A stretch of DNA of 64,000 nucleotides, taken from a virus. Taxonomy: Duplodnaviria; Caudoviricetes. The stretch is from IMG/VR virus record IMGVR_UViG_3300017909_001210, positions 1 to 64,000 of that record. The stretch is one strand, 5' to 3'. Positions 45,843 through 53,799 of the stretch are shown piece after piece. Under the pieces are notes generated by a model. That model did no database searches and was not told the origin of the DNA. It saw only the letters and a program-made list of their open reading frames with translations. Position numbers and translations under genes: made by a program. Within the stretch, counting starts at the first letter, position 1; each line of letters starts with the position of its first letter.

Positions 45843-47144
45843 ATGTTTTTATCAGAAAACTTACAGGAGAAGTGGGAGCCGATTCTAGAACATTCAGATT
45901 TACCAAAAATCGAAGACAACTACAAACGTGCCGTCACAGCTGTTATCCTTGAAAACCAAGAGAAAGCTCTTAACGAAGATAGAGATACTCTTGCAGAAGC
46001 AGCACCTTTAAATTCCACTGGCACAGGTATTTCTAACTGGGATCCGATATTGATTTCATTAGTAAGACGTGCTATGCCAAATCTCGTTGCATACGACATT
46101 TGCGGTGTTCAACCAATGACAGGCCCAACTGGTCTTATCTTTGCTATGAAAGCAAGATATAATGATGACGTAGACGCAGACAGATTGAACAAATCAGAAG
46201 CTCTTCATAACGAAGCTAGAACTGATTACTCAGCATCTGCTCAAACTTCATCAACATCAGTAGGTAGTGACCACTCAGGTGACCCATTCAATGGTTCATA
46301 CGCGTCACAAACTTCAGAGGGTATGTCAACTGCTTCAGCTGAGTCACTAGGTGACGGAAGCGGTTCAGGAAACCATTTTGCTGAAATGGCATTCTCAATT
46401 GAGAAAGCTACAGTGACAGCGAAATCAAGAGCACTTAAAGCGGAATACTCATTAGAACTTGCTCAAGACCTTAAAGCAATCCACGGCCTTGACGCAGAAT
46501 CAGAACTTGCAAACATTCTATCATCAGAAATCCTTGCTGAAATCAACAGGGAAGTTGTAAGAAGTGTTAACAACCAAGCGAAAACTGGTGCAGCTGCTAC
46601 AGCTTCAGCAGGAACTTTCAACTTGGACGTTGATGCAAATGGTAGATGGTCTGTAGAGAAGTTCAAAGGATTATTGTTCCAAATCGAAAGAGAATCAAAC
46701 GTTATTGCTAAAGAAACAAGAAGAGGAAAAGGAAACTTTATTCTTTGTTCTTCTGATGTTGCTTCTGCATTATCAATGGCTGGTGTATTAGATTACGCAC
46801 CTGCTCTTTCAACTAACCTTAACGTTGACGATACTGGTAATACTTTTGCTGGTGTATTAAACGGAAGAGTTAAAGTCTATATAGACCCATATGCGTCTGC
46901 AGACTACTTAACTGTAGGTTATAGAGGTTCAAACCCTTATGACGCTGGATTATTCTATTGCCCATACGTTCCATTACAAATGGTTCGTGCAGTTGGTGAG
47001 AATACTTTCCAACCAAAAATTGGTTTCAAAACAAGATACGGAATGGTATCTAATCCTTTTGTTGGTTCAACACCTTCAGACGGACTTGCTTCAGCAGGAA
47101 CAAACCAATACTACAGAAAATTTGCAGTATCAAACATTCTGTAA
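45843..47144 (+). CDS. gp23: Major capsid protein
   Basis: VRRAMPNLVAYDICGVQPMTGPTGLIFA, KSRALKAEY..ELAQDLKAIHG, YCPYVPL, FQPKIGFKTRYG. Confidence 0.98.
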   Translation: MFLSENLQEKWEPILEHSDLPKIEDNYKRAVTAVILENQEKALNEDRDTLAEAAPLNSTGTGISNWDPILISLVRRAMPNLVAYDICGVQPMTGPTGLIFAMKARYNDDVDADRLNKSEALHNEARTDYSASAQTSSTSVGSDHSGDPFNGSYASQTSEGMSTASAESLGDGSGSGNHFAEMAFSIEKATVTAKSRALKAEYSLELAQDLKAIHGLDAESELANILSSEILAEINREVVRSVNNQAKTGAAATASAGTFNLDVDANGRWSVEKFKGLLFQIERESNVIAKETRRGKGNFILCSSDVASALSMAGVLDYAPALSTNLNVDDTGNTFAGVLNGRVKVYIDPYASADYLTVGYRGSNPYDAGLFYCPYVPLQMVRAVGENTFQPKIGFKTRYGMVSNPFVGSTPSDGLASAGTNQYYRKFAVSNIL

Positions 47145-47163
47145 TCGAATTAAATTTCGGATT

Positions 47164-47191
47164 AAAACCCCTCTTTCGAGGGGTTTTTTTT
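47164..47191 (+). terminator. Rho-independent terminator after gp23
   Basis: AAAACCCCTC-TTTC-GAGGGGTTTT plus further Ts. Confidence 0.9.
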
Positions 47192-47192
47192 G

Positions 47193-47200
47193 TATAAATA
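47193..47200 (+). promoter_or_regulatory. Late promoter TATAAATA driving the riboswitch transcript
   Basis: Exact consensus; predicted +1 at 47206. Confidence 0.8.
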
Positions 47201-47205
47201 ATTCA

Positions 47206-47265
47206 ATCGTTCATTCACTCTAAATGTATCAGTGAACGGAAGTAGGCATGGGGCCGAAGGAACGC
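47206..47265 (+). ncRNA. glnA-type (glutamine-I) riboswitch aptamer
   Basis: ATCGTTC start; P1 CGTTC/GAACG (47208-12/47260-64); P2 TTCACT/AGTGAA; CGGAAGTA; P3 GGC/GCC; GAAG; terminal C. Matches the glnA three-stem/E-loop architecture as recalled. Confidence 0.85.
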
Positions 47266-47297
47266 ATTTTTGTTCAACCTTTAAACGGAGAATGGAA

Positions 47298-47414
47298 ATG
47301 ACAAAGAAAGCTAACCTCAAGTTAGTATATCGTGGTGTTCGTCACAATGGTGAAACCATTAAGTCAAAGCAACAAACCAAAGGTGTATACCGCGGTTCTA
47401 AGTGGGTTGCATAA
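47298..47414 (+). CDS. 38-aa basic peptide with two YRG motifs (DUF4278-like)
   Basis: GGAG RBS 47287-47290, ATG 47298; LVYRGVRH and GVYRGSKW. Confidence 0.75.
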   Translation: MTKKANLKLVYRGVRHNGETIKSKQQTKGVYRGSKWVA

Positions 47415-47492
47415 GACCTATATACTATAGTAGAAGGGGGTTCCTAAAACCCCCGACTACGACATAACACACATACACACAAGGAGGAAATT

Positions 47493-47711
47493 ATGTCAAA
47501 TACAACTAAATCAGGTTACGAAATTCGTGCCGACTTACTATCTCTTGCAGAGAGTGTTATTATCAACAACATTGAGAATGAAAGACAAACCATTTATTCG
47601 TGGAATGATAATCATGCTGATACCAAAAAGGAAATACCTTTGAGGACTTATACTGCTCAAGACGTTATCGAAACTGCAAAACAGTTTAATGACTTCGTAA
47701 ACGAGAAGTAA
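47493..47711 (+). CDS. Small hypothetical protein
   Basis: 72 aa, AAGGAGG RBS; GYEIRADLL..A...DVIETAKQFNDFV pattern seen in phage small proteins. Confidence 0.75.
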   Translation: MSNTTKSGYEIRADLLSLAESVIINNIENERQTIYSWNDNHADTKKEIPLRTYTAQDVIETAKQFNDFVNEK

Positions 47712-47766
47712 TGCATAAATAGTATAGTGGGGTGGAATTATTCACCCCCTTTAGAAGGAACAAATT

Positions 47767-47982
47767 ATGTCAGAATATGCAAAAACAGTGAAAGTGTTAG
47801 AAGGCCCTTGGGAGAAAAGTGCATTCCCAAATGGTATAGAAACAACAGACGTTATCAGTAGAACAATATCTACACGATATATTAAGGACGGATACCTTTG
47901 TGAAGAGGTAGTTCAAAGAGAATATCGTGGTGACGATTATCAAGACACCACAACGTCTAAAAGGATTATAAAACTTGACTGA
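47767..47982 (+). CDS. Small hypothetical protein
   Basis: 71 aa, AAGGA RBS, CATAAATA at 47714-47721. Confidence 0.7.
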   Translation: MSEYAKTVKVLEGPWEKSAFPNGIETTDVISRTISTRYIKDGYLCEEVVQREYRGDDYQDTTTSKRIIKLD

Positions 47983-48511
47983 AATAAACAAATCAATTCT
48001 TAATAAGAATAATTTTAGATTACTAATTGACAAAGTTCCAACAGTGGAATACTATGTGCAATCAGTTAATATCCCAGGCTTGTCATTTACAGAAACAATA
48101 AGTGCAGCTGGTGTAGGACTAGACGCGTTTTTCCCAGGCGATAAAGTGTCATTCGAATCACTAAGTGTATCATTCTTAGTGGACGAAGACCTTGCAAACT
48201 TTAAAGAAATGTATGAATGGATGAATGCAATTGTTCCCGTATCAGACCCAAGTGCATATGAGTCTTACGTAGGGACTAAAAAGACCACTACAGGACTCCT
48301 CAGTGACGTTGAGAACGATTTAAATCAGTATTCCGACATAACTATAGTGGTTAATACCAATAAAAACATACCTAATAAGTTCTTTAGGTTTCACGATGCA
48401 TTCCCTATATCCCTCAGTGGTATAGAACTGCAAAGTGGTGCTGAAACAGACGCTGTTGTTGCAACAGTTGAGTTCAGATTCACATATTACGATATCGAAT
48501 CAACCTCTTAA
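47975..48511 (+). CDS. gp3: Tail completion protein gp3
   Basis: NFRLLIDK.P.VEYYVQSVNIPG, FLVDEDL.N..E.Y.W, F.DAFP.SLS...F.FTYY. Confidence 0.9.
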   Translation: MTEINKSILNKNNFRLLIDKVPTVEYYVQSVNIPGLSFTETISAAGVGLDAFFPGDKVSFESLSVSFLVDEDLANFKEMYEWMNAIVPVSDPSAYESYVGTKKTTTGLLSDVENDLNQYSDITIVVNTNKNIPNKFFRFHDAFPISLSGIELQSGAETDAVVATVEFRFTYYDIESTS

Positions 48512-53250: not shown

Positions 53251-53799
53251 ATGACTACTAAAAAACAGAATGAACACTATGTTAACAACAAAGAGTTCAC
53301 ACTAGCAGTCGCCGAGTTCAACGAATCAGTTAAACTTGCCGAATCAAAGGGTAAAACACCCCCAAGAATGCCAGAATACATTGGTGAATGTATCTATAAA
53401 ATTGCGACTCGATTATCGACTCGTCCTAATTTTATCAATTACACATATAGAGATGAAATGATATGTGATGCAATTGAGAATTGTATTCAATATATCGGAA
53501 ATTTCAACAGAGAGAAATCAGATAATGCATTCGCATATATCACTCAAATCTGTTATTATGCCTTCCTAAGACGAATTCAAAAGGAGAAAAAACAAGTCTT
53601 TATCAAACAACAGGCAACAGACGCAGCTGGTATGATTACTGATGCATTTAATACTATAGACGGAGAACACGACCCAACACTTATCAATACGAATGTTGAG
53701 TGGATGCAAGAGAATATGAATCGTGTCGACTATGAACCTCGAAAGTCAAGGAAATCAACAAAAAAGAAAACATCAAACTTAGAAAAATTTACTGAATGA
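53251..53799 (+). CDS. gp55: Late-transcription sigma factor gp55
   Basis: HYVNNKEF, YIGECI.KIA.RLS.RPNF.NYTYRDEMI.DAIENC, NAFAY.TQI.YYAFLRRI.KEKKQ. Confidence 0.96.
   Translation: MTTKKQNEHYVNNKEFTLAVAEFNESVKLAESKGKTPPRMPEYIGECIYKIATRLSTRPNFINYTYRDEMICDAIENCIQYIGNFNREKSDNAFAYITQICYYAFLRRIQKEKKQVFIKQQATDAAGMITDAFNTIDGEHDPTLINTNVEWMQENMNRVDYEPRKSRKSTKKKTSNLEKFTE

Follow-up and report, generated by a model that had tools for sequence, protein, structure and literature searches.

Capsid-adjacent cassette at the locus

Directly downstream of the gene for the major capsid protein gp23 and its intrinsic terminator, the window (the whole 64,000-nt stretch of DNA analysed here) contains a T4-type late promoter box, a predicted glutamine riboswitch aptamer, a hairpin overlapping the translation start and a gene for a 38-residue basic peptide with YRG repeats and a likeness to DUF4278 (Table 1). 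The sequence-only reading of this DNA had given the order as gp23 terminator, TATAAATA, 5 nt and ATCGTTC, and the sequence indeed reads so, with ATTCA as the spacer and ATCGTTC starting at 47206; GTTCAACCTT is likewise found where that reading had placed it, at 47272-81, and GGAG is at 47287-90. The gp23 terminator is conserved in seven strain variants. A blastn search of 47100-47480 against the phage collection in 'distant' mode yielded no match.

Table 1. Features of the capsid-adjacent cassette and associated genes (window coordinates).
Feature	Position	Strand	Evidence and remarks
Major capsid protein gp23 gene, directly upstream of the cassette	45843-47144	+	Pfam Gp23, 491.2 bits
gp23 intrinsic terminator and T run	47164-47192	+	Terminator scan; 10-bp stem 47164-47187, 5 G-C pairs
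T4-type late promoter box TATAAATA	47193-47200	+	Sequence; predicted +1 A47206 (+/-1)
Glutamine riboswitch aptamer (predicted)	47206-47268	+	RF01739, 59.9 bits, model 1-53/53
Aptamer P1	47208-12/47260-64	+	
Aptamer P2	47214-18/47232-36	+	
Aptamer J2/3, CGGAAGUA	47237-44	+	
Aptamer P3	47245-47/47253-55	+	
Aptamer linchpin	C47265, partner G47239	+	Pair taken from the solved structure described in PMC11477058
Expression platform hairpin	47265-47300	+	CAUUUUUGUUC (47265-75) x GAAUGGAAAUG (47290-300); RNAfold, covariation
38-aa YRG-repeat basic peptide gene, DUF4278-like	47298-47414 (stop included)	+	ORF; Pfam/PHROGs
Conserved G5/C5 hairpin past the peptide ORF, without U tract	47436-47454	+	RNAalifold
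gp55-like late sigma factor	53251-53799	+	phrog_234 'late sigma transcription factor', 193.8 bits

The match to the Rfam Glutamine riboswitch family (RF01739) reaches 59.9 bits with an E-value of 9.9e-11, the gathering score being 35, and spans the model end to end, with all conserved consensus positions identical in the cmscan alignment. It is the sole Rfam match within the window and the only RF01739 match across the whole 79.6-kb virus record. The covariance-model check with Rfam glnA that the sequence-only reading had proposed thus bears out its assignment, and the glnA-motif elements that it had listed are all in place. The three-stem junction is present, with the conserved J2/3 and with GAAG ahead of the 3' strand of P1. 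The solved glutamine aptamer contains a ligand-dependent long-range G-C pair, the linchpin G23-C60 (PMC11477058), and both corresponding bases, the junction G47239 and C47265 directly 3' of P1, are present here and invariant in the seven strains. Judged by sequence and predicted fold, 47206-47268 is a genuine type-1 glutamine riboswitch (glnA RNA), for which glutamine sensing is expected from class membership.

Probable link to late transcription

The box TATAAATA is more than a chance word: it occurs in 15 copies, exclusively on the + strand, against an expectation of 5.6 +/- 2.2, and 11 of the 15 sit 6-39 nt ahead of ORF starts. CTAAATA occupies the same box position in sister strains, and for T4-like marine phages the late motif has been published as NATAAATA (PMC2984593). 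Reading a late promoter requires the late sigma factor gp55, and the phage encodes a homologue of it. Box enrichment, strand bias and the gp55 homologue all agree with the earlier proposal that the aptamer is fused to a T4-type late promoter. Because the box and 5 nt directly precede 47206, the aptamer appears to begin at the predicted late +1. With the box-to-start spacing of T4, transcription is predicted to start at A47206, where the Rfam match opens.

Among assembled metatranscriptome contigs of mixed strains, compared over 46000-48500, gp23 is heavily covered and 47176-47427 is uncovered. Several of the contigs over gp23 end at 47105-47136, where they run into Illumina adapter sequence; these ends fall slightly ahead of the terminator stem, and short fragments alone may explain them.

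A covarying hairpin over the start codon

In the predicted structure, the platform hairpin buries the AUG at 47298-300 together with an upstream in-frame AUG (47292-94) and the final G of the ribosome-binding site (RBS), GGAG at 47287-90. When the tail is folded with RNAfold, the 11 pairs alone amount to -7.1 kcal/mol, and to -8.7 kcal/mol with two inner pairs; the hairpin is compatible with the folded aptamer, the total being -16 to -19 kcal/mol, and about 6 kcal/mol of this is lost if C47265 and its three 3' neighbours are held open.

Equivalent helices were sought in the 97 viral units with a callable ORF, a helix being counted if it started exactly at the C 3' of P1 and ended no more than 16 nt from the start codon. 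Helices of at least five pairs, anchored at the linchpin C, are present in 73% of the units, as opposed to 30% on average and 39% at most over 2000 permutations in which tails were swapped between units; the tail swap replaced a shuffled-tail control, which was dropped because U-rich tails pair with purine-rich start regions. The pairing is CAUUU/AAAUG in the window's lineage and is replaced by compensatory combinations among the units, including CACCU/GGGUG, CACUU/AAGUG, CAUCU/AGAUG, CACUC/GAGUG and CGCCU/AGGUG. The sequestering helix covaries across phage units. Among the seven strain variants, 2 of 63 aptamer sites and 1 of 29 platform sites are variable (3/92 together), and the same variants differ at 37 of the 117 sites of the ORF (32%) and at 31-43% of the sites in the flanks.

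In the gifB leader of Synechocystis, C68 and the bases downstream of it pair with the RBS, and glutamine turns translation on by drawing this C into a long-range G-C pair (PMC6212724, PMC11477058). Because the platform described here matches this model, we read the element as a likely translational ON switch. The hairpin and P1 are compatible at the level of secondary structure, so that switching would depend on a tertiary event for which a different riboswitch of this class is the sole precedent.

The sequence-only reading had favoured a different platform, in which GTTCAACCTT pairs with AAGGAAC of the P1 3' strand. An OFF switch could be built on such an anti-P1 helix: without glutamine, GUUCAACCUU (47272-81) would pair with the P1 3' strand and leave the RBS free, whereas with glutamine P1 would form and the freed GUUC would close the start-codon hairpin, stopping translation. 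The complementarity exists on paper, as 4 + 3 pairs with a 3-nt bulge, and AAC(C)UUUAA is a common loop sequence in many units. However, the helix is worth -1.5 kcal/mol compared with -7.1 to -8.7 kcal/mol for the start-codon hairpin and is missing from all folds that come within 3 kcal/mol of the best one; GUUC is absent from most of the other units, the sole variable platform position within the lineage falls in that very loop, and the class members tested so far go ON with glutamine (PMC6212724). We therefore rejected the anti-P1 helix and regard an OFF switch as very unlikely.

Recurrence of the cassette among phages

A pattern scan of IMG/VR recovered 121 units with 134 aptamers in all; 13 units are tandem, and 105 are unique and complete. 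NTAAATA lies 5-8 nt ahead of P1 in 40 of the 105 unique viral units, compared with 2.3% of random 40-nt windows. The survey of this locus in related phages, which had been suggested in the sequence-only reading, shows the cassette to be recurrent: at least 25 of 104 viral units are located 66-660 nt behind a gp23 homologue, in three capsid lineages, namely that of the window itself (L008/L099, L168 and L172; 87-90% identity), a second with 61-64% identity and a third with 30-35% identity, in which the capsid is nearest to those of Rak2/GAP32-like jumbo phages. The box is found at 5-8 nt in 14 of the 26 capsid-adjacent units (window included), and the typical order is terminator, box, aptamer. 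The encoded peptides belong to at least seven families (YRG, WxxC, GTSGY, RPRAxKN, MTKYQ..NPFYP and others), have a median length of 38 residues and in 98% of cases a pI above 9.

In one uncultured marine phage lineage (contigs L087, L093, L119, L132 and others), the capsid protein is about 70% identical to those of the Rak2/GAP32-like jumbo phages Vibrio phage 2.275.O and Sinorhizobium phage Phosso, and a terminator, CTAAATA, a glutamine riboswitch and a small peptide follow directly behind the capsid gene. RF01739 was not found in the cultured Rak2/GAP32-like phages 2.275.O and Phosso.

Within the window's own lineage, the cassette is absent from L009 and L011, and in L008 and L172 its site is occupied by a tandem aptamer with another peptide; as far as such genome comparisons indicate, the cassette is dispensable and modular. 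A further relative with 89% gp23 identity (L007:3410-3720) has a different insert of about 300 nt at this site behind gp23, which starts with ATCGTTCA, contains ACGGAAGT and has no RF01739 match; this insert is perhaps an aptamer that has decayed or strongly diverged, or else an RNA of another kind.

The dispensability of the cassette, which such close relatives as L009 and L011 (87-88% gp23 identity) lack, would suit an aptamer that is an inert passenger, either a recent host fragment or a structure in the gp23 3'-UTR without a regulatory role. Against this stand the aptamer and platform being ten times less variable than the flanks in the seven strain variants, the presence of the unit in 64 blocks of contigs, Tara samples included, which form a single cluster of peptide homologues, and the recurrence of the promoter-aptamer-hairpin-peptide logic in three capsid lineages. 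An inert passenger is hence the least credible of the alternatives considered, and we regard it as extremely improbable.

Downstream region and possible extent of control

Past the peptide ORF, three pairs in the inner stem of the G5/C5 hairpin show compensatory changes among strains in the RNAalifold analysis. An invariant CCTATATACTATAG precedes this hairpin, and the resulting element (47418-47454) could be a 3' stabilizer, a processing site or the leader of the next ORF.

The terminator scan identified no intrinsic terminator after 47414. As no late box precedes the next ORF (47493-47711), co-transcription of that ORF with the cassette is probable. Such an arrangement raises the possibility that the switch gates more than the peptide, the untranslated leader leading at low glutamine to Rho termination or decay and thereby to control of the downstream ORF or ORFs. 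Consistent with wider gating, no intrinsic terminator separates the cassette from the 72-aa ORF at 47493, the conserved hairpin has no U tract and NATAAATA does not recur until 47714-21. In the sister phage L008, however, the peptide gene is followed by a complete terminator and another late box, so that the cassette is self-contained there, and the cassette-free L009 and L011 express their downstream genes from a late box of their own. We consider wider gating unlikely, although less so than the other alternatives discussed in this work.

Further downstream, at 47714-47750, there is another late box with a structured leader, consisting of CATAAATA and, after it, a GGGGTG...CACCCC hairpin, shortly before a 71-aa ORF at 47767.

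Phage identity, probable host and likely origin of the cassette

Among isolates, the gp23 proteins nearest to that of this uncultured marine T4-like phage are those of the Methylophilales phage Melnitz (67% identity) and the Pelagibacter phage HTVC008M (65.5%), with cyanophages at no more than 62%. The record carries CsgG (169 bits) and a proteobacterial-type AOX (227 bits), and psbA was not found in it, the record being 44% complete; to this extent, the earlier observation of AOX and no photosynthesis genes stands. The phage AOX (52625-53185) is 71-76% identical to the chromosomal AOX of 11 of 41 SAR86-family genomes and at most 60% identical to the AOX of about 600 other Gamma- and Alphaproteobacteria sampled. 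It looks like a host-derived metabolic gene and, as such, a clue to the host.

The cassette itself has counterparts in the same bacterial family. On the SAR86-family chromosomes G006 and G022, RF01739 aptamers are followed by YRG peptides with three repeats, and the C-terminus of the G006 peptide, IYRGNKWVA, resembles VYRGSKWVA in the window; YRG peptides were found in only 2 of the 81 SAR86-family genomes sampled. The promoters of these host copies are sigma-70-like, and a late box is absent. The cassette of the sister phage L172, in turn, shares 90% identity across 181 nt with the SAR86 contig L274, which is clearly bacterial (AhpC, AhpF-like, LysR and DsbA) and in which a tandem aptamer precedes an MT.Y..RAVKK peptide. 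Based on the AOX identity, the shared peptide C-terminus and the sister cassette of L172 and L274, we lean towards a host in the SAR86 family. The most likely history of the cassette, as judged from these genomes, is capture from the host followed by a promoter swap.

The aptamer pattern is also present in SAR86, SAR116 and other marine proteobacterial genomes. Five SAR86-group genomes contain 2-7 aptamers each, ahead of glutamine synthetase (GS) genes, a porin-like gene with amtB, a TonB-type receptor and small peptides. In the SAR86 genomes G002-G004 (L346, L347, L351, L349), the aptamers often form arrays of two or three and precede GS genes of type I and a type II-like kind. The element downstream of them is a GUUAAAC...GUUUAAC hairpin, unlike that of the peptide units, and this difference suggests an opposite regulatory logic. 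In G006 (L375; G006:C1:518500-525000), the riboswitch-YRG gene is located 1.9 kb from a cluster of porin-like, glnK, amtB and amtB genes, with two unrelated genes in between.

The peptide product

The peptide has a pI of 10.8, a charge of +8.6 and two YRG motifs. Its residues 8-36 align to positions 2-33 of Pfam DUF4278 (PF14105) with 20.4 bits (E 6.5e-4), below the cut-off of 25.3, and 15 of 17 aligned YRG peptides from other units match the same model at E <= 0.01 (best 3e-9). The peptide is also matched by phrog_5049, a family of unknown function (E 1.6e-4), and a protein-atlas look-up returned DUF4278 leads only (0.81-0.83). A search with the 40-aa in-frame form starting at AUG 47292 identified 11 homologue clusters at 75-100% identity; for the five whose contexts were looked up, all members belong to the same phage lineage and either directly follow gp23 or, where the contig is short, precede the same set of downstream genes. 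The reading frame and stop are kept among the seven strain variants, the one indel being of 3 nt, and the codon-position signal is weak, with 9 variable sites at the first, 11 at the second and 16 at the third position.

[quoted passage not shown] Together with the occurrence of the same aptamer ahead of GS genes in SAR86, this raises the question of whether the peptide might be a GS inactivating factor through which the phage brakes the host GS at high glutamine. Within IF17, however, DUF4278 makes up the N-terminal moiety, which GS inhibition does not require, and the residues that bind GS belong to the C-terminal IF7-like part (PMC6316151); this C-terminal moiety is absent from the peptide, in which 38 residues leave no room for it. 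Because DUF4278 is the part of IF17 that does not bind GS, the peptide should not be filed as a GS inactivating factor, and we judge such a role improbable.

A resemblance to PII was also considered. The second YRG motif can be placed by hhalign on the T-loop of the SAR86 PII protein, TEMYRGSEYSVD, with MYRGSEY in PII facing VYRGSKW in the peptide; the hhalign probability is 1.2% (E 0.043), which does not support homology, and the resemblance is one of motifs only. PII is encoded by 37 and AmtB by 40 of the 41 SAR86-family genomes sampled, and the idea that the peptide substitutes for a missing PII was rejected on these counts. More speculatively, the YRG mini-protein might be a host-derived effector of nitrogen signalling, for example, one that imitates the PII T-loop and acts on AmtB or on some other partner of PII or GS, captured by a SAR86 phage lineage and rewired to a late promoter with its glutamine switch kept. 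We hold this to be about as improbable as a GS inactivating role; if true, the virus would retune nitrogen uptake or assimilation of the host in nitrogen-replete cells only, and the widespread YRG peptide family would gain a function, along with one of the first genomic handles on SAR86 phages.

Proposed working of the unit

The explanation that we find best, and consider probable, is that of a self-contained late unit, in which an ON switch controls the peptide and which was taken as a cassette from the host lineage. Late in infection, host RNA polymerase with the phage gp55-like sigma factor would start transcription at about A47206, 6 nt past TATAAATA, and the transcript, following the T4 rule, would thus open with the glutamine aptamer. 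At low glutamine, C47265 and the next ten bases would pair with 47290-47300, hiding the start codon and the edge of the RBS and leaving the peptide untranslated. Upon binding of L-glutamine, the junction G47239 would insert into P1 and form the linchpin Watson-Crick pair with C47265, whereupon the base of the hairpin would open, the ribosome would load and the peptide would be made. The predicted product is a very basic peptide of 38 residues with two YRG motifs, a free-standing relative of DUF4278, and the cassette would have been taken from the host lineage and then re-fitted with a late promoter. Of this scheme, the sequence comparisons establish what the aptamer is, its anatomy and conservation, the covariation of the sequestering helix, the recurrence of the unit and the existence of host-like copies, and we infer glutamine binding, the start site, the ON direction and the host. 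It can fairly be inferred, in line with the earlier suggestion, that the phage reads the nitrogen status of its host during virion assembly.

The locus and the roughly 100 related viral units display a consistent design, consisting of a late promoter, an aptamer, a covarying hairpin that hides the start and a small basic peptide. We propose that, late in infection, a small effector is made only if the host is rich in glutamine. The locus also links a phage lineage to the uncultured SAR86 bacteria, at the strength of the host assignment given above.

Relationship to known glutamine riboswitch systems

Riboswitches are rare in phages. A full-text literature search found no description of a late promoter fused to a glutamine riboswitch. 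The RNA class, its ligand and its presence in phages of this kind, nevertheless, were already known (PMC9964418, PMC9004378), and the sequence-only reading overstated the novelty of the element. The glnA RNA is listed for T4-like cyanophages, such as S-CREM1 (PMC9964418), and the window shares with them an RNA family residing in T4-like marine myoviruses. Unlike the cyanophages, which have cyanobacterial hosts, the record described here has a proteobacterial-type AOX and CsgG and no psbA in the part sequenced.

Closer parallels are provided by the Methylophilales phage Melnitz, the Pelagibacter phage Mosig and pelagimyophage contigs, in all of which glutamine riboswitches have been reported (Buchholz et al., 2022, PMC9004378). 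Melnitz and Mosig are T4-like marine phages of heterotrophs with the same aptamer (52.8 and 50 bits), and Mosig shares the arrangement of the window, with a late-type box (ATAAATA) that in Mosig lies 6 nt ahead of the aptamer and a small basic ORF after it. The window differs from both in the site of the cassette, behind gp23, and in the YRG peptide, theirs being of the WxxC or RPRAxKN types. The control targets of glutamine switches in marine phages have been unclear, one published reading being tmRNA: the Melnitz copy, which overlaps the annotated 3' end of ssrA, was interpreted by the authors as controlling that gene (PMC9004378). Past the Melnitz riboswitch (L005:1501-1680; MZ577097.1 46398-46580), an unannotated + strand ORF of 34 codons is preceded by a start-occluding CACUU/GAGUG helix, and the hypothetical protein MelnitzEXVC044M_89 has been called on the minus strand over it. 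A design comprising an anti-start hairpin and a small ORF fits the Melnitz locus better than control of the tmRNA does, and the published reading of ssrA control may need revisiting.

The cellular units most similar to the cassette are those of the SAR86 family (G006, G022; L365, L366), in which one or more RF01739 aptamers are likewise followed by a YRG-repeat peptide. These copies have promoters of the sigma-70 type, three repeats and tandem or long-armed aptamers, whereas the phage cassette has a late promoter, a single aptamer and two repeats.

The best-characterized counterpart of the proposed mechanism is the gifB/IF17 leader of Synechocystis sp. PCC 6803 (Klaehn et al., 2018, PMC6212724). 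Both elements contain the same class of aptamer with the transcript start (predicted, in the phage) just before it; in both, the C after P1 and the bases next to it pair with the region of translation start, and both precede a product of the DUF4278 type, or at least DUF4278-like in the phage. The gifB switch is turned ON by glutamine (PMC6212724), and the same direction is suggested here by analogy. The differences concern the promoter, which is a phage late promoter here and an NtcA-controlled host promoter in Synechocystis, the product, a DUF4278-like peptide of 38 residues devoid of the IF7-like GS-binding part, and the carrier, a phage of a probable heterotroph.
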